This document shows positions 2,776-52,400 of a stretch of 64,000 nucleotides of DNA, in pieces. A program made the translations under genes and the position numbers. This DNA comes from a virus. The notes beneath the pieces were generated by a model that worked only from the letters and a program-made list of their open reading frames with translations, did not search any database and was not told the origin of the DNA. The stretch is from IMG/VR virus record IMGVR_UViG_3300017766_003354, positions 64,001-128,000 of that record, one strand, 5' to 3'. Each line of letters begins with the position of its first letter. Positions within the stretch are counted from its first letter, which is position 1.

Positions 2776-3558
2776 AACTAATTTCATTCGATCCTCGCAA
2801 CTTTTCGCATCGGGCTTTCCAAGTCCAAAATTACAAACTAGATTTTCTTTTCGGAGAGAGTCTAGTTTTTCTTTTAGCCCATCATCAGTAACCCAATACT
2901 CTCCGCGCCAAAATCCTTTAACCTCAGATTCGCCAAAATACTTTTTTGCCAAAAACCAAAAACTATAGTCTTCTAAAATTAGAAACTTTTTTAGATTTGC
3001 CGTTCTTTTGATTCTATTCAAAAACTTCTCTTCGTGCAAAGCTTTGCTCAGATAACCAACAAAAGAAGACTCAAAAAGATAAATCCCGCCATAAGGAAAT
3101 CCATTTTTCGACAAAGCAAACATCGCTTTTGATTCCTTCAAATAATCGGCCCAATTGGAATTTAAAATTAGACAATCAGGATCTATTTTAGCGATATATT
3201 TTGAGCCTGAAATTTCGGTCATTTGAGCGTAATTTTCGGTCATTCCTTTAATGCAAGGTTCTCCAATTAGATTCCCGCATCTGTGATAATCGGTATCCAA
3301 CACTACACAGCCTAAGTTTTCTAAAACTCTATGAATCTTCAGACTAATAGGAAAGAAAGAATCGTTCCAGATAAAAATCCATCCATCAAAAAACCTACGA
3401 ATAGACTTAACACAAAAAACTGTTTTATTTTCGTCTTTACCGTATGTCCAAATATTAAACGCTAGGTCGGTGTGCTTTGAGGTAGAAAGCTTTATTGCTC
3501 TCGTATTGTTCTCTGGCATAACGCTTAAATCGGCCAACATGGTTCTTTCGGATTCCAT
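2758..3558 (-). CDS. putative glycosyltransferase (GT-A fold); start uncertain
   Basis: Pattern IWTY..D...CVKSIRR...IFIWND...AKIDPDCL contains a DxD motif. Available ATGs lie inside the upstream gene. Confidence 0.5.
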   Translation of the reverse strand: MESERTMLADLSVMPENNTRAIKLSTSKHTDLAFNIWTYGKDENKTVFCVKSIRRFFDGWIFIWNDSFFPISLKIHRVLENLGCVVLDTDYHRCGNLIGEPCIKGMTENYAQMTEISGSKYIAKIDPDCLILNSNWADYLKESKAMFALSKNGFPYGGIYLFESSFVGYLSKALHEEKFLNRIKRTANLKKFLILEDYSFWFLAKKYFGESEVKGFWRGEYWVTDDGLKEKLDSLRKENLVCNFGLGKPDAKSCEDRMKLVLRRLA

Positions 3559-4489
3559 AAATGAAAACTTTGACTGACTTCGGGCGAAAGAGATTTTTTA
3601 CTTTGATTTGAAGGTTGGCCCCCAAAACGTTTGCTGTGGCTCGGCAGGGTTTATCCACGCCTTGAACAGAAACCACTGAAATCGACCCTTTCTCGCAAGA
3701 ATGAAGGATTTCGGGTGAAAGTCTGTAATTCGTTCTGCGGCCCGTAATTGGCACCTCTATGATGTCAAAGAACCACGCTTCTGGACTTTCCATGCAAACC
3801 CAGCCAATATATTCGTTCTGAAATGGAACAATCGCTGTTTTGCTTCCACTATCGTCAGAAACTCCAGTTGAACTGGATTCTCCCCCAGAAATAAAAAGGG
3901 TCCCGCCATCTCCCCAAACAGAAACGTTTCCGACTCCGCTGACACTTCTGAATTTTACAGAAGGGTTGCCAGCATTAAAAATGCTAGAATCTTGGCCCCA
4001 AGAATAAAGAATCGGTTCTCCATAACCGATATTTTCGTAATTGTTTTTTTGCCAATGGATATTCTCGCGCAAATAAATATTAGTCAAACCACCAAGACTA
4101 TCAAAATCACAAAGAGGAATAAAAAATTCTCCTTCTCCATTGCTATATACGTCGCTACCATTTGGAAGGTCGCGGGCAGAATAATGAAAATTATAAGAAC
4201 CAGAGGCCCCTTCTGTAATCTGCGCCGATGAAATGGCTGAGTTATCGGTAGGCGTTTGGACTTTTACAAAAAATCTTTTCCCAGCAACTTGATATTCTTG
4301 GTCGCAGCCTTGAATTGTTACTTTGCTTATTGCTCCGTCTGTCTGAGACTGAAAATCAAAAACATATCCTTGGTTAAAGGACATGCGCGTATTCGGACCT
4401 TCGCCCGAAATAACATAAGGGTAAAGAGGCTGAGGATTAGGGACATTAATTCCCTGATAAGGAAACCCGAATGCAGAAATATCGGACAT
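3455..4489 (-). CDS. hypothetical tail-associated protein
   Basis: 344-aa ORF starting 2 nt after the Gly-repeat fibre gene; beta-rich composition. Confidence 0.55.
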   Translation of the reverse strand: MSDISAFGFPYQGINVPNPQPLYPYVISGEGPNTRMSFNQGYVFDFQSQTDGAISKVTIQGCDQEYQVAGKRFFVKVQTPTDNSAISSAQITEGASGSYNFHYSARDLPNGSDVYSNGEGEFFIPLCDFDSLGGLTNIYLRENIHWQKNNYENIGYGEPILYSWGQDSSIFNAGNPSVKFRSVSGVGNVSVWGDGGTLFISGGESSSTGVSDDSGSKTAIVPFQNEYIGWVCMESPEAWFFDIIEVPITGRRTNYRLSPEILHSCEKGSISVVSVQGVDKPCRATANVLGANLQIKVKNLFRPKSVKVFIYGIRKNHVGRFKRYAREQYESNKAFYLKAHRPSV

Positions 4490-4491
4490 AA

Positions 4492-5841
4492 TTAAAAACT
4501 AGACAAAAATGTTCTACCCCAACCTGAACCCGCTGTGCCAGTGCAAATATAAAGGCCAGAACCACTGGCTTTCATCTCTCCAAAGCTCCCAGCCTGATTG
4601 GACGCGCCAGTAAATTGCGGCAACCTGAAAAATACTCCACTAGCGAAATCCAAAGAAAGAGTATGAGCGCCTTTAGATAAGTGGTTTCTATCTTGGCCGT
4701 CTCCCAAAATAGAAGCTCCGCTATGGCCCGAAGCGATCAAACACCTTCTACCTCCGAGAATTGAAGAATACGCCCCAGAAGCCGTATTAAATGTCCCACC
4801 TGCGACAACGGCGTATGGTCCACGCACATAGTTACTCGCCCCACCACCAATAAAACCAAATTCTCCGTCAACACTCGCCGCATTACTGGTTCCTCCGACT
4901 ACCGTAGAATACTGCGCATAGCAATAATTCCCAAGGCCGCCGCCAATAAAACTATATTCGGCAAGAGCTTGATTTGTTAATCCTCCGACAATACAGGAAT
5001 AATCTCCAGTGCTTACATTGGAAGCTCCCCCTCCAATAAAAGTGTGGCTACTGGCGCTTACATTATCTTGACCGCCAGCAATAGAAGAATATGAATGAGA
5101 AGCTGTATTATTAATTCCCCCTCCAACATAAGAAGCATAGCCTGACGCTGTATTAAAATAGCCGCCAGCAATAGCAGACATTTCACCCACGAAATTAATA
5201 TTTCCGCCACCAATAAAGGAATTCATACCCGATGAAATATTCCCATTGCCGCCTACAACCGAGCTGTAACCAAGAGCAACTTGGTTGTTTAATCCTCCTC
5301 CAATAAAAGTATAACCATTAGAACAAGTGTTTCCTTGTCCACCACCAATAACGCTAACGTGGGAACTAATAGTGTTCGCTGATCCGCCACCAATTACGCC
5401 AACATATCCAGTGATATTGTTATTCGAACCAGCCCCAATAAAACAACCATAATAATCTACAAATGGCCCAACCTTCATTCCAATGGAATTGGTCGAACCC
5501 GCCCCAATCATGGACTGGCTGGCAATAACATAATTTCCCGTTCCAGCGCCAATAGCTGAATTATCGTGAGTAACGATTAAATTCTGATCGCCGCCACCAA
5601 TAAAAGAACAATCTCCTCCAACTCCGCCACTTGTTCCTCCAGCTATTGAGCTGTTGATAGCATAAGTTGAATTGCCAGTCCCACCACCAATAAAAGAATT
5701 AGCCCCAATGGCTTCATTAGAGTCACCCGCAGAAACAAAAGATTTCGCCCCAGTAAATTCATTAAACGACGCTCTATAATGAGCGCCAGATAAAACGGCG
5801 TCAATTTCGGCTGCTGTATTTGATAACGAGTATTCGGACAT
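4492..5841 (-). CDS. Gly-rich repeat tail fibre/adhesin
   Basis: About 20 repeats of ~14-15 aa (SFIGGGxxN); N-terminus YSLSNTAAEIDAVL resembles fibre attachment segments; GTGTAAA lies 9 nt upstream of the ATG. Confidence 0.7.
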   Translation of the reverse strand: MSEYSLSNTAAEIDAVLSGAHYRASFNEFTGAKSFVSAGDSNEAIGANSFIGGGTGNSTYAINSSIAGGTSGGVGGDCSFIGGGDQNLIVTHDNSAIGAGTGNYVIASQSMIGAGSTNSIGMKVGPFVDYYGCFIGAGSNNNITGYVGVIGGGSANTISSHVSVIGGGQGNTCSNGYTFIGGGLNNQVALGYSSVVGGNGNISSGMNSFIGGGNINFVGEMSAIAGGYFNTASGYASYVGGGINNTASHSYSSIAGGQDNVSASSHTFIGGGASNVSTGDYSCIVGGLTNQALAEYSFIGGGLGNYCYAQYSTVVGGTSNAASVDGEFGFIGGGASNYVRGPYAVVAGGTFNTASGAYSSILGGRRCLIASGHSGASILGDGQDRNHLSKGAHTLSLDFASGVFFRLPQFTGASNQAGSFGEMKASGSGLYICTGTAGSGWGRTFLSSF

Positions 5842-7512: not shown

Positions 7513-7529
7513 TTCTTCTGTTTACACGG

Positions 7530-7561
7530 AAAAAGCCGCCCGAGTTTCCCCGAGCGGCTTT
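7530..7561 (-). terminator. intrinsic terminator
   Basis: Minus strand AAAGCCGCTCGGGGAAACTCGGGCGGCTTTT, downstream of the 7584 gene. Confidence 0.8.
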
Positions 7562-7583
7562 ATTTCAACGGAGGTTGAATTTT

Positions 7584-7769
7584 TTACTTTTGCTTGGCGC
7601 GACCCACATTCAATGCCAACATATCAATAACAGAGTAGAGTTTGGCTTGCCAACCACTTTTTGGCGTTTTTGTTACGGCAGCAATAGCTGAAGCCAGCGT
7701 GACAACAGCGGTGAACACCTGAAACCAAGGGTTATCAGCAAACGGAGCGAGAATTTGAATAAAGTCCAT
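7584..7769 (-). CDS. small membrane protein, putative holin
   Basis: 61 aa with one hydrophobic helix (WFQVFTAVVTLASAIAAV) and a basic C-terminus; GTGTAA lies 8 nt upstream. Confidence 0.5.
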   Translation of the reverse strand: MDFIQILAPFADNPWFQVFTAVVTLASAIAAVTKTPKSGWQAKLYSVIDMLALNVGRAKQK

Positions 7770-7777
7770 ACCTTCTA

Positions 7778-7996
7778 TTACACTTCTTCATCTTCTTGGG
7801 AATCGGAAGATTCTGAATTAGGAAAAAGCTTATTATAAAAGTCCTGTTTTTGCTCTTCTGTAAGCCTTGAGATACTTTCCTTGGCGGAAGATTCAATTGC
7901 CCCCTGAATAATATTCAAAGCTTCACTCAGGCTTAAATCTGCGGCGATTTTTTGACAGGATTTTTGAAAAATTTGGCGCTCTTGGTCTTCTGTCAT
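7778..7996 (-). CDS. hypothetical protein
   Basis: 72 aa with an acidic tail; ATGA overlap with the upstream gene. Confidence 0.6.
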   Translation of the reverse strand: MTEDQERQIFQKSCQKIAADLSLSEALNIIQGAIESSAKESISRLTEEQKQDFYNKLFPNSESSDSQEDEEV

Positions 7997-8226
7997 TCGA
8001 AACCTCCGTTGTTTTCTTGCTTATTGCGCGGGCTTTCCCTGTAAACTCGAACGTCAGGCTCCTTGTCGTTCTTTTTGTTTGAATTGGCATAAGCAACAAG
8101 CTTGATGACCTCGCCGTTTACTTTAACATGCCCGCTGTAGTATTGAAGGCCGCCAGAAGAAGTCTCCCTCCACAATGCTCCCAATTCTCGATTCTTCCAG
8201 TCTGCTTTCTTTTCTTCGTCTGTCAT
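7993..8226 (-). CDS. DUF736-like small nucleic-acid-binding protein
   Basis: LGALWRETSSGGLQYYSGHV...NSNKKNDKEPDVRVY pattern. Confidence 0.55.
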   Translation of the reverse strand: MTDEEKKADWKNRELGALWRETSSGGLQYYSGHVKVNGEVIKLVAYANSNKKNDKEPDVRVYRESPRNKQENNGGFE

Positions 8227-8229
8227 AAT

Positions 8230-8406
8230 TTAATTAAATCCGTTGGTTGCAAATTCTAGTTGCTCCATAAAATAAGCCTTCTTAGGCTCAGGAGTAGCCG
8301 AATACATTTTCTTAAAGCGCCGATAGAGGCGTTTTTGAATGGGGTTCGGGTTTTTGAAATCGAATCCAATCATTTTGCGAATTGCTCTTGCTTTGATATT
8401 TCTCAT
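8230..8406 (-). CDS. hypothetical basic protein (58 aa)
   Basis: Below the track cutoff. Manual translation gives MRNIKARAIRKMIGFDFKNPNPIQKRLYRRFKKMYSATPEPKKAYFMEQLEFATNGFN; it fills the gap between co-oriented genes. Confidence 0.65.
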   Translation of the reverse strand: MRNIKARAIRKMIGFDFKNPNPIQKRLYRRFKKMYSATPEPKKAYFMEQLEFATNGFN

Positions 8407-8415
8407 AAAAGTGTG

Positions 8416-8435
8416 GCGGGGGATTGCTCCCCCGC
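8416..8435 (-). terminator. GC-rich hairpin, weak terminator or processing site
   Basis: GCGGGGG-N6-CCCCCGC downstream of the 8443 gene; the U-tract is imperfect. Confidence 0.5.
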
Positions 8436-8442
8436 TTTAGGA

Positions 8443-8646
8443 TTAGCCAACCGAGGCAATGCTAGTCTTAGCGAACTTACGATTTCGATAGTTGTTGCGG
8501 TCATAGACCCGAACATACGAATCAGTCTCACCACGGAACTGAGCATTCAGAACCTCTCCACCAGTAGTCTTCAAGCCAAAAAATCGGCCCTTCGAATTGC
8601 GGATAATGTTCAATGCGTCGATTTGCTTTTGTGTCATACGTTTCAT
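8443..8646 (-). CDS. hypothetical small basic protein
   Basis: 67 aa with its own promoter (TTGACT-N16-TAATAT at 8684-8657) and a downstream hairpin. Confidence 0.65.
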   Translation of the reverse strand: MKRMTQKQIDALNIIRNSKGRFFGLKTTGGEVLNAQFRGETDSYVRVYDRNNYRNRKFAKTSIASVG

Positions 8647-8680
8647 AAGTCCCTGTATATTAATGAATTAACCACCAAAG

Positions 8681-26662: not shown

Positions 26663-26690
26663 ATTATAGATTCGCCATCTAAATTTTCAA
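26663..26690 (-). promoter_or_regulatory. sigma70-type promoter, leaderless spacing
   Basis: TTGAAA-N16-TATAAT, then 6 nt to ATG 26656. Confidence 0.7.
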
Positions 26691-26873
26691 GAAATTCTCA
26701 AACTCTGTTTCTCCTGTCTCAATCATTTTCAAAACATAAGGAACGCAATACTGACATTTTGAACAGCAGAGGTTCTTTTCTTTTAGTTCTTCTAGGGACT
26801 CTTTTTGGAGAAGAATTTGGATTTCCGAGAATGAAATATTATGGCAGATACACTTCTTTATCTGAGAGGGCAT
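26679..26873 (-). CDS. BFD-like [2Fe-2S]-binding protein
   Basis: CICHNIS...CCSKCQYC (CxC...CxxC). Confidence 0.7.
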   Translation of the reverse strand: MPSQIKKCICHNISFSEIQILLQKESLEELKEKNLCCSKCQYCVPYVLKMIETGETEFENFLKI

Positions 26874-28861
26874 GCGCCATTTTCACACTCCAGTCCATCA
26901 ATCAATTCCGAACCAACATCAAACATAGAATCAATAGGCTTGACTCTTTTGATTTGTCGGTTGTATTCCTCTTCCGAGATTTCTTCCAAAGGAGCTTGGA
27001 CGAACCCGTGCTTGGAGTGCATTAGGAAGCTGAGAGTCTTCATATTTTTATCATAATTCTCGCTCATCCATGTCTTAATCGCGCCAAGCTCTTCTGGCTT
27101 ATAATAAACCGTTACCGAAACAGAATTATCTGCCCAAATTTTCTGAAGCTTTTTGGTAAGTTCGAGTTGATCTACTGCCCCCATTTGATCAGCCGTAATT
27201 GTGGAAGGTTCAAATTCGCACGGGAATTCAATAACAGTCATTCCATAATCTTCACTGCTGTCAAAGCGCCGAACGTATTCGGTCTTGTAGCCAGCGTCAC
27301 GACAAAGTTTAACCAAAGGATCAGAACTGGCCATTCTCACCCTACGAATGAGATAACGAGAATAGGCGGGATGAACCCCAGAAGTCGCCCCTCCAAGAAG
27401 GGATAGTGTGCCAGAAGGTTTCACTGTCGTCAATTTGATGCTTTCGGGGATCGCTAATTGCATGCTCCAAGACTTATCGAACATTTTAAGCTCTCTGTAG
27501 CACTCGTCCAACCACTCCAACTTATCCAAAGCCTGACAAACACCAGTAACTCCTAGGCCAATGCGGCGATTCTTTTTGACAATTTTATCTGTCTTTTCGT
27601 AAAGCGCGGGCAAATTCCATACGGCTTTTTGAGTCTTATAGAGAAGTTTGGCGCAATCAATTAACTGTTCTTTTGACTCGATATTATTGAGATACAATTC
27701 TGAAAGATTGCAGGCTTCTCCGTCTGCCAAAGTAATTTCAGCGCATGGATTTACGCCCTCACAGTTGTCCTTTTTCTCTTCTCCAATTCTGCCAAATTTT
27801 TGGCAAAGTTTCATATTGATGAATCCGTAAGGTTCTCCCTTAGCCATTCCAGTTTTTGGATCAATAGTATATCCATTCTCCCAAACCTCATTGCTGATAT
27901 GCGCGTAAGAATCAGCCTCAATGCTATTGTTTGATTTGCCTCTCCAATTTGGGATATCTCCATCGCTCCACTTTTTGGCCCTTAAATAAAGGTAGTCGTC
28001 AGGATCGCCAATTGCTATCTCTGCGCTACGTCTGACATTTCCCGCGACAACAATATCTCCAATGATATTATTAATATCCAAGACATCAACAGATCTTAGC
28101 TTCTTGCCTTCGCGATTGGTCAAAACTCCAGCAATAGATTCAAGACCCTCTACTAGAATTTGTGGACCGCTGGCCGTTCCTCCAAATCCTTGAATTGGTT
28201 CTCCAGCGCCTCTAACCAAAATAGTAGAATACGAAAACGACTTGCCTGTAACAAAGAACGACTGAATAACCTTTCTAAGCAATTCCACCCATCCTTGTCG
28301 AGAGTCTGGGACAATAAAATCTGCGTCTTTTTCTTTATTATGGGTAATGTGAACGCCGCGTTTTACTCTCGGAAGTTCGTGGATGTCTTCGCGGCGAACG
28401 GAAAAGCCAACTCCTCCACCAAGCATTAAATGTTCAAATACAAAACAAAAATCCTCGATCTCTCTCATCGAGACATACCAGCAATTAAGAAGGGACGCAA
28501 GGCCAAACCTATCCACCGTAGAGGTCCCCAACTGCCACAGCATTCGGCCAGCAAAATTACACTTGAGATTAAAGACCAAATCAAAGAGTCTTTGAGCTTC
28601 TTCTGGAGAATATTTTGCGCCAATCTTTTGTGCTCCATTAATACAACGGGCAACTGTCTGCCACCATTCTTCGCTTACTCCATCACAAATCTTTCTCGCA
28701 TAAGTCCTCTTATAAACAATATAGCCTAGTCCATTGAATCCCCATTTAGGGTTTGTTCCTTCATAAGGAGCAAGAAATTCCCTTGGCAGGATCTCTGAAT
28801 AACAATGCTTGTCCTTATATGCCCGCTCCTCTTGTAAAACCTCGTCCTTGATCATAGTCAT
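26858..28861 (-). CDS. nrdJ: class II (B12-dependent) ribonucleotide reductase
   Basis: YKRTYAR, GRMLW, NC, NVRRSAEI, NPCAEI, CNL, TTVKPSGT and C-terminal CENGACP; no small subunit nearby. Confidence 0.9.
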   Translation of the reverse strand: MTMIKDEVLQEERAYKDKHCYSEILPREFLAPYEGTNPKWGFNGLGYIVYKRTYARKICDGVSEEWWQTVARCINGAQKIGAKYSPEEAQRLFDLVFNLKCNFAGRMLWQLGTSTVDRFGLASLLNCWYVSMREIEDFCFVFEHLMLGGGVGFSVRREDIHELPRVKRGVHITHNKEKDADFIVPDSRQGWVELLRKVIQSFFVTGKSFSYSTILVRGAGEPIQGFGGTASGPQILVEGLESIAGVLTNREGKKLRSVDVLDINNIIGDIVVAGNVRRSAEIAIGDPDDYLYLRAKKWSDGDIPNWRGKSNNSIEADSYAHISNEVWENGYTIDPKTGMAKGEPYGFINMKLCQKFGRIGEEKKDNCEGVNPCAEITLADGEACNLSELYLNNIESKEQLIDCAKLLYKTQKAVWNLPALYEKTDKIVKKNRRIGLGVTGVCQALDKLEWLDECYRELKMFDKSWSMQLAIPESIKLTTVKPSGTLSLLGGATSGVHPAYSRYLIRRVRMASSDPLVKLCRDAGYKTEYVRRFDSSEDYGMTVIEFPCEFEPSTITADQMGAVDQLELTKKLQKIWADNSVSVTVYYKPEELGAIKTWMSENYDKNMKTLSFLMHSKHGFVQAPLEEISEEEYNRQIKRVKPIDSMFDVGSELIDGLECENGACPLR

Positions 28862-28901
28862 GTCTTTTACACATTCTAAGGCAAGAAAAAGATTTTAGCA
28901 A

Positions 28902-29230
28902 GAACTTTCTCAAAGAAAATTCTCGTCTGCGCCAGCCTACTATATGAAATCGAGCATCGCGAGATTTCACACATTGTAAACGCGCAACTGCATCGTATTT
29001 ACAGAGTCAATTGTTGTAGAATTTAATAAAGAATAGCTGAGTCTAATTATTCTGGAATGGAGAAATCAAACGAAACTTTTGCGAATCCTGATTTCGCAAT
29101 GCAAGGATAATTAGCGAAGCTTGCGTAGAACAAACGAAACTTTGGTTTACTGCTGTTCAAGCAAATTGGAAAGGCGAAACGGTAATTTAAATCGGGACAG
29201 GCGAAACTTTTGCGCATCCGTCCCGCTTCT
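28902..29230 (-). ncRNA. candidate structured non-coding RNA (alternatively a replication origin)
   Basis: Six consecutive hairpins in an interval with no credible ORF, directly downstream of a near-consensus promoter; three loops share AAAGUUUCG. Confidence 0.55.
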
Positions 29231-29236
29231 GTTTCA

Positions 29237-29264
29237 ATTATACAGACAATTTATTTCGTGTCAA
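29237..29264 (-). promoter_or_regulatory. near-consensus sigma70 promoter firing into the non-coding structured region
   Basis: TTGACA-N16-TATAAT with an upstream A-tract; no start codon follows. Confidence 0.75.
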
Positions 29265-29379
29265 GCTTTTTTTTTCAAAAATCTTCCATTATTTTCATTT
29301 CGCCGTCTTCCTTCTTAAATCTTCCACAAAATAAAGATTATACTGGGCGACCCAACGACTGTTTGAATCGCTTGTTATA

Positions 29380-29421
29380 GTGTAAAAAAGACTTGACTTT
29401 TCATAACTCGTTGACTATTAT
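29380..29421 (+). promoter_or_regulatory. tandem GTGTAAA motif and sigma70-type promoter for the dUTPase operon
   Basis: GTGTAAA at 29380-29386; TTGACT-N17-TATTAT, then 6 nt to ATG 29428. Confidence 0.7.
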
Positions 29422-29427
29422 AGCACA

Positions 29428-29862
29428 ATGTTGACGGCAACCGTTTCAAACCTTGATGGAATTCGACCTCCCGCGCACGCGGGCGATGTTGGATTTGACC
29501 TTATCGCAGCTTCGGAACCTCGATTCGTTGGCAATCCTCCGTCTATTCAATATGTTGAATATGATACAGAAGTAAGAATTAAGCCTCCAAAGGGCCACTT
29601 CTCTCTAATTTTCCCACGATCATCTATTTCTAATTATACTTTAGCTCTAGCTAATAGCGTCGGAGTTATTGATGAAGGCTATCGTGGAAACATAATAATT
29701 AGATTTCGCGTAGTCTATCAAACTGGAGAATTGAAATTTTATAAAAAGGGAGACAAAATTGCCCAACTGGTGTTTATGCCATCAGTTATCCCTACTCTTG
29801 TTGAGGGGGACGTAGATGAAACAGAACGAGGAACTGGTGCTTTTGGAAGCACGGGAAACTAA
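29428..29862 (+). CDS. dut: trimeric dUTPase
   Basis: All five motifs: GFDL, RSS, GVIDEGYRG, AQL, RGTGAFGSTG. Confidence 0.95.
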   Translation: MLTATVSNLDGIRPPAHAGDVGFDLIAASEPRFVGNPPSIQYVEYDTEVRIKPPKGHFSLIFPRSSISNYTLALANSVGVIDEGYRGNIIIRFRVVYQTGELKFYKKGDKIAQLVFMPSVIPTLVEGDVDETERGTGAFGSTGN

Positions 29863-30078: not shown

Positions 30079-30681
30079 ATGGAAATTATCGCTGTATCAG
30101 GAATCGCCCGTTCTGGCAAAGACACATTCGCAGATTGCCTTGCGAAAGAAGTTTCCGACATGTTCCCCAACCTTAAAGTCCGAAGGGAGAGTCTAGCTTC
30201 CTTTCTCAAAGATGAAATGGCTGGGTTCTTGATGGAGAAATTCAATAAAGACATTTACTCGCTAGAAGGAGAAGAGAAGGAAAAGTTTCGACCTTTGCTT
30301 GTGGCGTATGGATTCGCAAAACGGTTGGATACAAAAGGAACCTACTTTACTTCTCTTCTCCAAAAAAAGATGGAGACGGAGAACGCTGACATATATATCA
30401 TTTCTGATCTTCGATATGCAGAATCAGAATCAGATGAACTTTCGTGGTTAAAGAATCAAGGAGGCAAGCTTATCCATATTCGTCGCTACAATATAAAAAA
30501 CGGCCAAAAACAATACATCAAACCCCCAAATTCTGACGAAAAGAAGAACGATCCTCTTCTCGAAAAGAATGCCGACTTCCATATTGATTGGGAATCTGCT
30601 TCTTCTCCACAAGAACTAAATAAAGAGGCTTCTAGATATTGCCAAAACTTCATCCATCAGAACATCAAGCTTTTCCTATGA
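30079..30681 (+). CDS. deoxynucleoside monophosphate kinase
   Basis: SGIARSGKDT P-loop, KEKFRPLL, ISDLRY..E. Confidence 0.8.
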   Translation: MEIIAVSGIARSGKDTFADCLAKEVSDMFPNLKVRRESLASFLKDEMAGFLMEKFNKDIYSLEGEEKEKFRPLLVAYGFAKRLDTKGTYFTSLLQKKMETENADIYIISDLRYAESESDELSWLKNQGGKLIHIRRYNIKNGQKQYIKPPNSDEKKNDPLLEKNADFHIDWESASSPQELNKEASRYCQNFIHQNIKLFL

Positions 30682-31271
30682 GCGAATCAACCGATACAGA
30701 ACTAGCTTTCAAAGTTCAAAAGGTAAACGACGAAGAGGCCCTTGGGGAGTTGATTTCTAGGCATTCTGGTATATACGTTGATATGATTCGAAAGTTTGGT
30801 GGGAAGTCTCTTACTGAGAATCAGGTTGCAGATTTAATGGGAGAAAAGGATTTTAATATCTATAAAGCCGCGATTGAGTATAACCCAGATAAAAGCAAAT
30901 TCTCTACTTTCCTTGCCATCAAGACGAAGTATCTTTGCCTTACTAGCAAGACCGTAAATAAAAAAACTAACCACTTCGTTGACTTTGACGAAGAAAGCTT
31001 CCGATTAGCCTCGAACTCGGTTCCTCCAGACGAAGCCTCTGCTGATAATGAAATTATCGCAAAACTTTATTCAATAATTGACCGCCATCCAGATAAGCTC
31101 GTTAGGCAAATTTTCGAAGAGAGATACTTTTCAGGAAAGAACAACAAACTAAAATCTTGGAAAGAGATTTCCAAATCAGTGGGGCTTTCTATCCAAGGGG
31201 TAATTAACATTCACAACAGAACTCTTCCAGAATTTCAAAAACAACTACAACATGCAGAAATTACATTTTGA
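30678..31271 (+). CDS. phage RNA polymerase sigma factor (sigma70 family)
   Basis: Region 2-like IYKAAIEYNPDKSKFSTF and region 4 HTH SWKEISKSVGLSIQGV; start at the ATGA overlap (30678). Confidence 0.8.
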   Translation: MSESTDTELAFKVQKVNDEEALGELISRHSGIYVDMIRKFGGKSLTENQVADLMGEKDFNIYKAAIEYNPDKSKFSTFLAIKTKYLCLTSKTVNKKTNHFVDFDEESFRLASNSVPPDEASADNEIIAKLYSIIDRHPDKLVRQIFEERYFSGKNNKLKSWKEISKSVGLSIQGVINIHNRTLPEFQKQLQHAEITF

Positions 31272-32759: not shown

Positions 32760-33134
32760 ATGCCTCCGCTCTATACATATCTCAATGAAGAAACAGGGGA
32801 AGCAAAAGATGTTCTCCAGTCAATGAGTGAAAAACACGAATTTTTCGAAGATGGGGTTCAGTGGAAAAGAATCTTTTATGCGCCACAAATGTCAATCGAC
32901 ACAAAAGTTGACCCATATTCAGCAAAAGACTTCTCTAAAGCCACAAACAAAAAAGGAACAATTGGAGACATGATGGATCTATCCGCCGAACTCTCTGACA
33001 AAAGAGCGAATAAAGACGGAACCGATCCCGTAAAACAGAAACATTTCCAAGACTACGAGAAGAAAAATAAGAAAAAACATTTGTTAGATAAGCCGAAGGT
33101 TATTGAGAGTTCTTTTGCTAAGATTGAATTTTAA
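32760..33134 (+). CDS. FmdB-like protein without Zn-ribbon cysteines
   Basis: MPPLYTYLNEETGE...QSMSE...WKRIF..P follows the MPxYxY FmdB layout. Confidence 0.5.
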   Translation: MPPLYTYLNEETGEAKDVLQSMSEKHEFFEDGVQWKRIFYAPQMSIDTKVDPYSAKDFSKATNKKGTIGDMMDLSAELSDKRANKDGTDPVKQKHFQDYEKKNKKKHLLDKPKVIESSFAKIEF

Positions 33135-49442: not shown

Positions 49443-52400
49443 TATTTTCCTACTTGTTCGAGAGCTTGAACTCTACCAATAAGAGCCTTGATAGACCCGT
49501 CAACAGTCGTTGCTAGAGTTCCCATGTTGCTTGCCAATTCTTGGAAAGCCTTTCCATCGGTTGCGGCGTTTTTAAGCGAATTATCAAGATCTTGAATCGT
49601 TGATTTAAGATTCGGCAAATCTTTGAATTGTTCTGAAAAGGTGGTCATCGCCGTATTGACGCCTTGGAAGCGTTCGCGCAAAGATTCGAGTTCCTTGCGA
49701 ACTTTAACAGATTCTTCGGTAATTTGCTTGTTGGCATTTTCTTGAGCCTCTTTAGAGCCAGTAGGATCGACCTTTTTCAAAGCTTCAAGATCTTTGATTT
49801 TTGCTGCGATTTCTTTGTCGAATTTTCCGCCGCGAGAACCTTTCAGACTTTGAAGGTCTTTAATAACCGTCGAAGCGTCTTGTTCAGAGGACAAGCCCTT
49901 ATCGCGGATTCTCGCCATATCTTGCGGCAAGAATTTCTTGCCAACGATTCTTTCTCTAAGGTCGAAAGCGCCAGTATTAGCTTGCGACAACGCTTGAGAA
50001 ACTCCAACTTTATTGGAAAATCCAGTGCTGATACCAGCATTAGACTTCCATGCATTAACAACTTTATCTCCGTAAACGCTAATAGCGTTAGCTTCGAGTT
50101 CTGCGATTTTTAGCCATTGGTCGGCGGCTTTTTGGGCAGAGTCCCCGCCGCCAGTTTTTTCTAATTTGCCAATACTCTGATAAGCAGCGGTTAATGAAGT
50201 AATATCAATAGCGCCGACATCTTTAATAGCTTTTAGTTTTCCTCCTAAGCCTGAAACTAATCCCTCTAAAGTTTTAACTAATTCATCTTGGATGCCTTTT
50301 TTGAATTTAGAGAAATCTTGTTTAAGAGTGTCTCGTTCTGCGATAATAGAGGATTTCGCGTTCAACAAAGATTGGAACGAGCTAGACGCTGAAGAAGCAA
50401 ATTCGTCTGCGCTTTTTACGACATTATCGAAAAACTCTTTACCACTTCCTTTAACATCTACTCCAACAGCAGAAAGTTTGTCTTCTAGTCCTTTGGCCCC
50501 CTTGGAGAAATAAGTATCCACCAAAGATTGAGAAAACCCCTTTTGCTCGACATCGAAAGAAGCTTTTGTTGCTTCTCGGCCTGTTATATCGGATCTTAAA
50601 GATTTAGCAAAGTCTTCGCCTGTGAAAAGTTGCGATAAAGCATTTTCAGATGAAAGGGCTTGAGTTTGGGAAGATTTGAGCGACAATAGTTCTTTTACGC
50701 CCGAAGCGTTTTTGGCGGCGGGGTCAATAAAGACGTTTTCGGCCAGTTTGTCAGTAAAACTTGCAGAGGTCAGTTTATTAGCTGTTTCCGCAACGGCTTG
50801 TGAAAATTGGTTTAAAGACTTTAAGAAATCTGACAATAGATTTTCCCTAGTTGCCGCTTTCCTGAAACTATCAATATTTGCCTTAGCTTCCAATACCGCC
50901 GCTTGCAGAGCGTCGTTGGCTGCGGCTACTTTCGTATAGTCGATCTCTCCTTGTTCGTTTGGCTGGTAGGCTTCTTTTAAGACTTTAGATAAATCTTCTA
51001 TTTGTTTTTTTGCTTCTTCGCCTTGCTTAGTTGAGCTTAAATCTTTGACGAATGATTCGTAGCTCTTTTCTTTTTCTTTTTTATTCTTCCCCTCAAATAA
51101 TCCAGCAGTTGATCTAAAGCGCGTAGTCATTTGCGCTCTTTGTTGTGTGAGGCCAATAATGCTGTTACCTTGATTTTCGGCAAGTTTTTCAGAATATTTT
51201 GTGGAGCCTAATTTCGAGTAAATTCCCGTTGATTGTTCTAGTTTATTTGCTCCAAATCCTCCTAATTTAAAGCCTCCATAAGCCGCGCCTGCCGCCGCAG
51301 CAGCGGGACCAGCTACAGATAAACCGCGAGCGACTAATCCGCGAGCGCCAACGCTTCGTGCCGCAGAAAGTCCCCCCGCCCGAATGTTGCGAAAGAAGCC
51401 TCCCTTGCCTTGGGTTCTCAATAAGTCCTTTTTAGCAGTGTTACTTAAAATTCCTGAATCAATATTTTTAGCTTGAGAGGCTATTCCTTTATATTTAGAA
51501 GCTCCAGAACCAAGAAAACCTCCTTTTTTAGCTATTGATTTAAATACAGTTGGGAAACCCTTTGACAAAATGGTTTTGCCCATTTTAGCGAAATCGCCAA
51601 AACTTTTACCAGTTACAGAAGAGATTGTCGCCATGATAAGCAACGCTTGAGTAGCCGTTGTGACGGCGCTATCTAAATTAATAAAACTTTTGTCCAATCC
51701 TTCTGTAGATTGTCCCAAAGATTCCGCCTTTGATACTGCGTCTCTTTGTTCTTGGCTTAAAGAGGTCGTTGCTTGTTGAAGAGCACCAAACAAAGATTGC
51801 AAAACAAAAATTTCCCCAAATCCTGTTGGTTTGCTAATTCTTGATTTCGCAGGAGGCGCATATCTCGACCCATCATCAAATCCAGCGGTGTTGCCAGACG
51901 GCGTTGCGGCTGGTCCGCGACGAGCAGACGGACGACGAGGATTGCTAGAAGGAGATTTGGTAGGCCCTGATCTTCCTCCTCCGCCTCCGTTTGTCCCCCC
52001 AGAAGAAGCAGCCGCTTGAGCAGAAGCGAATCCCGCTGTCGCTTTGGTTGCCTCCCCTAGTCCCATTTTAAACTGTTGCAGTTGAGCCACAACAATGCCG
52101 AAGGCTTGGTTCGAAGGTTGTGGTTTTGCGGTATTGGGCGATGATGAAGAAGTAGCCGTTCCTCCAGAAGCTTTCGCTTGTGCGGAAGCTTTTTTCTTTT
52201 CGGCAGCGTCCAATAGACGCTTGGCAACTTTCGCTTCGGCAATTAGTCGAGGATCAGAACCAGAATATGCAGCACGAATTCTTAAAGAATTTATTGCATT
52301 ATCTGATACAAAATTTGGCACAAAGCCTCCCGCAGCACCATAACTTTTTGGACTTTTCCCTTCGCGTTTGGCGCGGTTTATTCCTTGACGTGAACCATTA

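Follow-up and report, generated by a model that had tools for sequence, protein, structure and literature searches.

A conserved non-coding element with base-paired hairpins between dut and nrdJ in uncultured freshwater phages

Introduction

What purpose does a perfect sigma70 promoter serve when it faces a gene that has a promoter of its own and when hairpins, not a message, lie behind it? This question is raised by the divergent intergenic gap between dut and nrdJ in the DNA analysed here, a stretch of 64,000 nucleotides (nt), referred to as the window, which comprises bases 64001-128000 of the 146,905-bp IMG/VR virus record IMGVR_UViG_3300017766_003354 from an uncultured freshwater phage. 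To our knowledge, uncultured freshwater phages of such size are almost unannotated outside their proteins. An earlier note on the window had described a promoter-driven multi-hairpin element of about 330 nt at positions 28902-29264 and had proposed that it is a novel phage non-coding RNA, a regulatory leader of nrdJ or a replication origin. Our analysis firmly supports a functional, conserved, non-coding element with base-paired hairpins; the promoter-driven, hairpin-bearing region without a match in Rfam is real, and the gap and its neighbours, nrdJ and dut, are as they had been described, with both genes confirmed by Pfam.

Results

The promoter and its relatives

The promoter at the head of the element, here called P_strong, lies on the minus strand and faces nrdJ (Table 1). 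It scores 12/12 against the sigma70 consensus, in agreement with the claim that it is the best promoter of this type at the locus, and it is one of just two perfect consensus matches in the 146,905-bp genome. An A/T-rich tract lies directly upstream, with an A9 run at 29267-29275. The genome contains 11 near-consensus sites of the sigma70 type (at least 11/12), and in 6 of these 11 an ATG follows 6-7 nt past the -10 hexamer, which points to leaderless messages; examples are window position 26690 (genome 90690) and genome positions 13744, 14104, 21900, 23963 and 30851. P_strong is the conspicuous exception, as it is perfect yet has no start codon at the transcription start, which is predicted near 29230 from the position of the ATG at the leaderless promoters of the same phage. 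Shine-Dalgarno sequences are present at few genes of this phage, and most upstream regions are A-rich. Behind P_strong, six hairpins (HP1-HP6), all of which fold as had been described, lie in about 370 nt of non-coding sequence ahead of nrdJ.

A search of IMG/VR and the metagenome collection gave L005 as the sole syntenic relative, the other NrdJ relatives found there being not syntenic. Four further sets were obtained from a protein search and exact-protein look-ups, which resulted in five syntenic relatives with NrdJ proteins 77-88% identical to that of the window: besides L005, these are L118 (NrdJ P0001, 87%), L119, L120 and L121 (P0002, 88%; L119 is from JGI 3300050210), L122 and L123 (P0003, 77%; L122 is from a 139-kb contig of the NCBI assembly GCA_964507955.1) and L124 (P0004, 81%). 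Conservation was therefore judged from six distinct sequences, those of the window and its relatives. In the syntenic relatives dut and nrdJ are divergent, with the dut side of L118 beyond the contig end, where only 120 nt upstream of nrdJ are present. P_strong is kept with identical hexamers and spacer length in L005, L119-L121, L122-L123 and L124, while the flanking sequence has diverged, and in relatives having short gaps it stands back to back with the dut promoter. Behind it, 197-294 nt are free of any conserved open reading frame (ORF) in the relatives; across six phages including that of the window, this stretch measures 197-375 nt.

More distant NrdJ relatives (up to 74% identity) do not have this arrangement: the 73%-identical P0006 and P0007 are not syntenic, and P0034, P0035, P0024 and P0022 come without the element. 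A blastn search of the gap against 50,697 cultured-phage records gave no match, exact-protein look-ups with the NrdJ and Dut of the window returned no record, and a scan of the genome contigs collection found no relative. A pattern scan for TTCTTG-N20-TARNATGTGTAA recovered only the L005 contig, the other matches near nrdJ or dut being a coding motif. The 38-nt nrdJ-promoter pattern also coincides with a conserved coding stretch, guessed to be PhoH-like, in L139, L163, L165, L167, L168 and L170.

Covarying hairpins at the 3' end

All relatives have HP5 in an unchanged position; its stem is AU-rich and 6-11 bp long, and its loop is UCGC-N2-4-GCUC. In a loop-anchored alignment of seven copies, 48 of 48 cells are paired and both sides have changed in 7 of 8 pairs. 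None of 500 shuffles reaches the observed score, and partner columns that were slid out of register pair in 31-42%. A weaker hairpin, HP6, directly follows HP5 in every relative and is itself followed by a T-rich tail; its stem differs in sequence from phage to phage (for example GGAACAU/AUGUUCC versus GAAAUCU/AGAUUUC). Taken together over four relatives, HP5 and HP6 comprise 15 pairs, which are 100% paired and show double changes in 6, and both hairpins are independently predicted by RNAalifold. Compensatory changes across homologues, by which a conserved structured RNA is recognised, were accordingly found for HP5 and HP6. The comparison of the nrdJ-dut gaps of related phages that had been suggested thus reveals conservation and covariation, mainly of P_strong, HP5 and HP6. 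For HP1-HP3, compensation is seen only among paralogues in one genome, in addition to a single A-U to G-C exchange that distinguishes L119 from L124.

The 75-nt module formed by HP5 and HP6 has a G+C content of 26-31%, as opposed to about 40% in the genome. A covariance model of both hairpins, built from four relatives, finds HP5 of the window weakly (10 bits, E 0.17, filters off) and HP5 of L122 with 13.5 bits, and is unusable for harvesting new members.

Repeated motif hairpins and the variable 5' module

In the window, AAAGUUUCG lies on the 3' side of the loop in three hairpins, HP1-HP3. The shared loop motif that had been reported is confirmed in all its parts: AAAGTTTCG occurs at the three motif positions given in Table 1, an 18-mer is common to two of the hairpins, and a fourth GTTTCG lies between HP1 and HP2. 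AUUUAAAUU comes after the HP1 stem. The genome contains 7 copies of AAAGTTTCG, of which 3 fall within 140 nt on one strand (Poisson P ~1e-9 per window, ~2e-6 genome-wide); the remaining four lie inside genes in the mRNA sense and have no surrounding hairpin. The three motif copies are flanked by contiguous stems of 9, 6 and 8 bp, for which P is 0.008, 0.10 and 0.018 at random genome positions.

These stems are not unrelated, as had been supposed. Read from the loop outward, HP1 has the pairs G-C, G-U, C-G, A-U, G-C and G-C (GGACGG/CUGUCC) and HP2 the pairs G-U, A-U, C-G, A-U, A-U and G-C (GAACAG/UUGUUC). HP3 has the pairs of HP2 plus an inserted U-A and A-U pair (GAA(AU)CAG/UUG(AU)UUC), so that HP2 and the upper portion of HP3 (29095-29062) are paralogues set apart by a compensated AU/AU insertion. 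The three hairpins are diverged paralogues of one unit. They differ by two single changes that are compatible with wobble pairing, by a double change from G-C to A-U and by a 2-bp insertion that is compensated; the pairing survives each of these, which is the pattern that selection on an RNA helix produces. Because HP1-HP3 are copies of one unit, the conservation of the loop is partly due to common descent.

No second copy of the whole element is present within the genome. Pairs of motif copies separated by 45-70 nt turned up at 94 loci in a scan of IMG/VR, which is about a rough chance estimate, and none of these loci is related; some are coding tandem repeats and some contain a dispersed palindrome in unrelated phages. 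In the unrelated IMG/VR phages L037, L044, L050 and L097, which have no protein similarity, a near-perfect AT-rich palindrome of about 36 nt with CGAAACT/AGTTTCG occurs 3-9 times per locus.

A stable hairpin is found within the first 45 nt in 5 of 5 leaders. In L122, the 15-mer GCGACAAAGTTTCGC lies 19 nt past the -10 hexamer; the window has GCGCAAAAGTTTCGC 21 nt past its -10, with 13 of 15 positions matching (P ~1e-5). L122 has two further motif-like sites, one of them in the loop of a GGGAC/GUCCC hairpin that is followed by U6. In L119 and L124 a variant of the motif (AAAGUUUUUCG, AAAGUUUCUCG) is the 3' strand of a hairpin whose 5' strand is its own complement, and it does not lie in the loop. 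The conservation of the motif hairpin therefore holds in part: L122 shares the motif, but it is a helix strand in L119 and L124 and is missing from L005. Instead, L005 has at 2480-2548 a perfect 16-bp palindrome ACGTGTAATTACACGT, placed at the predicted transcription start, followed by three direct repeats of the GGGTTTACGTG type with an exact 18-nt period, and this arrangement looks like protein-binding iterons or operators. TTACG-type words related to the L005 repeats occur in L119 and L122. To judge from these leaders, the motif hairpins are a lineage-variable part of a conserved element, and their triplication is specific to the window phage.

Upstream of P_strong, the region 2457-2700 of L122 contains two direct repeats CGATTACAAAAAAAGTTG, several TTACG words and a second HP5-like hairpin with a 12-bp stem and the loop TCACTACGTTC, which scores 18 bits with model R1.

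Folding, strand and transcript ends

Individually, HP1, HP5 and HP6 clearly beat shuffled sequence, and HP2-HP4 do not (Table 1). The fold of the whole 379 nt has a z-score of -1.3 on the minus strand versus -0.6 on the plus strand. Folding of both strands, as had been recommended, therefore confirms the stability of single hairpins, but the z-score of the leader as a whole is weak and not strand-specific. An asymmetry between the strands that had been pointed out is present: the minus-strand helices contain 8 G-U versus 1 A-C, and 5 versus 1 if only positions flanked by standard pairs are counted. Because of this excess, a minus-strand RNA, which has the sense of nrdJ, is mildly favoured. A pairing of GAAAC at the 5' end that appears in the predicted leader fold was dropped, since it is upstream of the inferred transcription start.

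The canonical GC-rich terminators of this phage have energies of -17 and -27 kcal/mol. Across the phages, the energies of the HP6 stems lie between -1.9 and -10.5 kcal/mol, and the following 22 nt contain 9-15 T; a terminator scan calls HP6 in L122 and L124 and makes no call in the window, L119 and L005. HP6 is far weaker than the canonical terminators, and a discrete 3' end at HP6 is therefore uncertain; the discrete RNA of about 330 nt that the earlier note had envisaged is not supported by so weak and AU-rich a hairpin. Possible roles of HP6 are weak termination, pausing or processing.

The T-rich tract after HP6 leads into the sequence TTCTTG-N20-TARNAT-GTGTAA, which is kept directly before nrdJ in the window, L005, L118 and L119, and nrdJ therefore owns a promoter, as had been held from the motifs in the window. 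The proximal version in L122 is TTGCCA-N16-TAGAAT followed by GTGTAA. The word GTGTAA stands 8-11 nt ahead of many first-gene start codons (28872-28867, 29380-29386 and some 20 further gene starts across the genome). Some copies come directly after a GC-rich terminator and T run, one in L182 is at the -10 position behind TTGACA, and an inverted pair (repeat I2) flanks both ends of the dut/nrdJ gap.

Comparison with known RNA elements

The Rfam search that had been proposed matched no known family. With Rfam 15 (4227 models), 0 hits were obtained at the gathering threshold in the whole window and 0 in the loci of the five relatives; at a permissive E-value, the best hits in the gap reached 10-14 bits as compared to thresholds of 50-94.

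Lambdoid antitermination leaders contain nut sites, in which boxA and boxB act with protein N, and the unit of pR', 6S RNA and tR' is under the control of Q. The element resembles such leaders in its strong promoter and non-coding leader, in small hairpins with sequence-specific loops, in hairpin-plus-U elements before delayed genes and in hairpin sequences that vary between related phages. It differs in that its loops have 9-17 nt and are not GNRA-like pentaloops, in that no N- or Q-like gene has been identified, and in that termination is predicted only. A boxA (CGCTCTTA-like) 8-mer with up to one mismatch is not found in the window leader, and among the relatives only L119 and L005 have isolated 8-mers with one mismatch. 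Neither Pfam nor PHROG gives an assignment for the small ORFs nearby, although no search was aimed at N-type proteins.

With the CsrB/RsmZ sponges the element has in common that several hairpins per transcript share a short motif and that the copy number varies between relatives. However, the motif here is AAAGUUUCG and not A(N)GGA, it is base-paired in two relatives, and there is no Rfam hit. Many GGA in loops, as in CsrB/RsmZ, are not found: the window leader has three GGA, two of them at stem-loop junctions, and the relatives have 1-2 each. GGAU occurs at just two sites, both of them stem-loop junctions, and the relatives do not conserve these sites. The repeated protein-binding hairpins of PyrR attenuators likewise combine a conserved loop with stems that vary, and they lie in the leaders of nucleotide-metabolism operons, but the PyrR family is in Rfam and yet has no match here, and no PyrR gene was seen nearby. 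The repeats do not form a ToxI-like array, as they share 9-18 nt at a spacing of 64-67 nt and are flanked by nrdJ and dut. Nor do they mimic a CRISPR repeat or mini-array (repeat of at least 23 nt), the longest shared block being 18 nt and the stems being different. The idea that CGAAAC on the plus strand is a -35 element of an extracytoplasmic function sigma factor was abandoned, as no consistent -10 partner was seen by eye.

The locus and its surroundings

The phage is very distant from cultured phages: the closest cultured-phage NrdJ is 48% identical, a capsid-region ORF has no match among cultured phages, and the polymerase has distant cultured relatives only, with 24-31% identity. An exact 123-bp repeat is common to both ends of the 146,905-bp record. 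Among public sequencing runs, a single one, a freshwater metagenome of DNA that may be the source sample, is listed as containing the DNA of the window, and no RNA run is listed. The coordinates of the features are listed in Table 1. The gap had been called the only long non-coding gap in the window; the gap itself is confirmed but its uniqueness is not, since 7513-8680 is likewise without an ORF of at least 80 amino acids.

Table 1. Features of the dut/nrdJ locus in window coordinates, with z-scores of single hairpins on the minus strand
Feature	Position	Strand	z-score	Description
nrdJ	26858-28861	minus		class II ribonucleotide reductase; first gene of the leftward block; Pfam RNR_Alpha, Ribonuc_red_lgC, RNR-II_ins_dom
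dut/nrdJ gap	28862-29427			divergent intergenic gap, 566 nt
nrdJ-proximal promoter	28867-28901	minus		TTGCTA-N17-TAGAAT, then GTGTAA (28872-28867)
HP6 and U-rich tract	28883-28925	minus	-4.2	stem 28925-28899, 12-bp, AU-rich, two G-U; U-rich tract 28898-28883; z-score -1.7 on the plus strand
HP5	28941-28973	minus	-3.1	11-bp stem; loop UCGCGAUGCUC 28962-28952; unique in genome
HP4	28975-29003	minus	-1.0	weak, -7.2 kcal/mol; no conservation seen
HP3	29043-29114	minus	-1.4	long imperfect hairpin (inverted repeat I1); motif 29079-29071
56-codon ORF	29047-29217	minus		overlaps HP1-HP3; judged spurious
HP2	29128-29158	minus	-1.2	paralogue of HP1; motif 29143-29135
Fourth GUUUCG copy	29175-29180	minus		between HP1 and HP2
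HP1	29193-29225	minus	-2.6	8-bp GC-rich outer stem, inner GCG/CGC stem; loop AAAGUUUCG 29210-29202; -15.8 kcal/mol
P_strong	29237-29264	minus		TTGACA-N16-TATAAT; faces nrdJ
dut promoter	29393-29421	plus		TTGACT-N17-TATTAT; divergent; ATG 6 nt further on, leaderless-type
dut	29428-29862	plus		Pfam-confirmed

Several further observations concern the surroundings of the element. Upstream of P_strong, a 15-nt direct repeat (TGGAAGATTT core) lies at 29274-29288 and 29312-29326 with a spacing of 38 nt, and a small GC hairpin at 29342-29356 is followed by a T-rich run on the minus strand. A triple module at genome positions 51706-51881 (L181 1207-1382) has no Rfam match at E up to 0.1, and five tRNA genes lie in the surrounding 3-kb stretch. 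The nrdJ gene is uninterrupted in the window and interrupted in close relatives: that of L005 has two insertions of about 0.9-1.1 kb (3062-4000, 4742-5806), and the NrdJ proteins P0002, P0004 and P0034 contain intein or LAGLIDADG Pfam domains.

Discussion

We tentatively favour the interpretation, held with somewhat less than even confidence, that the element is the structured non-coding 5' leader of an early nrdJ/replication-block transcript made by the host RNA polymerase, and that it acts in cis at the RNA level. This interpretation is preferred because P_strong and the leaderless dut promoter together make up a divergent early control region, because hairpin-plus-U elements occur along the leader, because the last hairpin is not strong enough to end transcription cleanly, which would allow read-through into nrdJ, and because the G-U bias points to an RNA in the sense of nrdJ. 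The transcript would start with a stable hairpin and end with the covarying HP5 and HP6, after which a U-rich tract would lead into the nrdJ promoter. The hairpin-plus-U elements (HP1, the GGGAC..GUCCC-U6 of L122 and HP6 in all phages) would attenuate or pause early transcription, and the GCG-NN-AAAGUUUCGC unit, triplicated in the window phage, and the HP5 loop UCGC..GCUC may be recognition sites for a phage or host factor or an RNase. The recognising factor would decide whether the transcript is extended or is processed into a translatable nrdJ message. This could occur by attenuation or antitermination at the hairpins, or by an endonucleolytic cut in the U-rich tract after HP6 that would yield an nrdJ message with a short leader. 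Later in infection, nrdJ would be read from the proximal promoter with its GTGTAA element.

Several points weigh against a cis-acting leader. In more distant phages, nrdJ is expressed from a gap of about 110 nt that does not contain the element, and nrdJ expression as such therefore does not require the leader; moreover, a conserved promoter belongs to nrdJ itself. Not every relative has the AAAGUUUCG motif: three share it, and L005 has TTTACGTG repeats with an 18-nt period in its place. In L122, an HP5-like hairpin lies upstream of P_strong and thus outside the predicted transcript. The z-scores for folding of the whole leaders are modest, and neither strand is consistently preferred among the relatives; the covariation of the hairpins fits extruded single-stranded DNA equally well. 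In addition, no candidate binding factor was identified, and the transcript starts, ends and read-through were all deduced from the DNA sequence.

The same promoter and hairpins could also belong to a stand-alone trans-acting RNA of about 330-350 nt, whose AAAGUUUCG hairpins and HP5 loop would titrate or recruit an RNA-binding protein as a decoy or sponge, or pair with targets. A consensus promoter with an upstream A-tract and no leaderless ORF behind it, together with a hairpin and U-rich tract at the 3' end in all relatives and nrdJ's own promoter immediately downstream, would suit such a transcript, which stable hairpins at both ends would protect; moreover, the motif hairpin occurs three times in the window and two to three times in L122. 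We nevertheless regard it as unlikely, as HP6 is a poor terminator in comparison with the canonical ones of the same phage and as the motif is a helix strand in L119 and L124 and does not occur in L005. The four other copies of the 9-mer in the genome are all mRNA-sense, which leaves no perfect antisense target in the phage, and the RNA has no known binding partner. More specific, and quite improbable in our estimation, is an abundant early decoy RNA whose AAAGUUUCG hairpins and HP5 loop would sequester a host RNA-binding protein, a nuclease or a defence sensor. The sponge, decoy and anti-defence readings that had been put forward received no direct support, and a sponge or anti-defence function is speculative. 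If it were true, the decoy would represent a new class of phage devices that use RNA for host takeover or counter-defence, with a copy number that evolves between relatives.

Transcription can also serve replication. ColE1 RNA II, T4 oriF and oriG and the T7 primary origin are examples of origins that are primed or activated by a transcript. The locus is similar to these in that its promoter has no coding product and points towards an AT-rich segment close to replication genes, and in that the transcript has multiple hairpins. If it were an origin or part of one, P_strong would provide an activating or priming transcript of the R-loop or primer type, the AT-rich HP5-HP6-T-tract would unwind, and AAAGTTTCG in the window and TTTACGTG in L005 would be iterons or hairpin signals in single-stranded DNA. 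The position of the element at the main strand switch and the low G+C content of the HP5-HP6 module are in line with this, as are the direct repeats and palindrome of L005, the additional direct and inverted repeats and the HP5-like hairpin upstream of P_strong in L122, and the fact that the repeat sets are phage-specific, as iteron/initiator pairs predict. In the window, however, the motif copies are irregularly spaced (27, 40, 64 and 67 nt), in contrast to the regular 18-nt period in L005. With G-U pairs in excess on one strand, RNA is more plausible than duplex or cruciform DNA. No gene for an initiator was identified adjoining the region, and unlike in the origins mentioned there is neither a skew signal nor an identified RNase H-type or initiator feature in these few hundred nt, which abut a gene promoter. 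The cumulative GC skew, which had been suggested as a check on an origin, has no inflection at genome position 93 kb and a slope that follows gene orientation; taken by itself, this neither supports nor excludes an origin. Overall, an origin also seems unlikely to us.

Alternatively, the repeats could be operators in double-stranded DNA, through which a phage transcription factor would shut off or roadblock the early promoter, the hairpin potential being incidental. This would agree with the first motif copy at about +15 to +30 in the window and in L122, with the perfect 16-bp palindrome at +1 and the subsequent direct repeats in L005, and with the presence in the divergent operon of a weak sigma-like PHROG hit (ORF 30639-31271) and a match to phrog_385, 'transcriptional regulator' (ORF 32760-33134, E 5e-7). 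However, the arms that flank the motif vary and yet stay complementary, including G-U pairs and a compensated insertion, for which binding to duplex DNA would not select. HP5 and HP6 covary freely in sequence, and beyond the first copy the position of the motif relative to the promoter is not conserved. We consider operators very unlikely.

It had been stated that no ORF lies behind the promoter; one of 56 codons does follow P_strong, with an ATG 19 nt past the -10 and an open frame. That P_strong expresses this ORF is extremely improbable, and it was rejected as coding, given that the 56 residues have no homologue among 5.8 billion proteins within the searched length window and no PHROG match, that the distance to the -10 differs from the leaderless arrangement used elsewhere in the phage, that the nucleotide motif lies in three different frames inside it, and that the relatives' leaders contain no conserved ATG-start ORF of at least 10 codons, L119 having none.

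Conclusion

The analysis defines a conserved non-coding control element that lies between two early operons and heads the genes for nucleotide metabolism and replication. In this element, a promoter and a 5' hairpin are combined with two covarying hairpins at the 3' end and with a repeated hairpin that varies between lineages. Represented by six distinct sequences from uncultured freshwater phages and matching no catalogued RNA family, it is a candidate for a new family of phage non-coding RNAs or leaders and thus for a new Rfam family. It offers a handle on the timing of replication-gene expression, or on the start of replication, in phages that otherwise use leaderless messages. If the hairpins bind a host factor, the element would be a new RNA-based takeover device.

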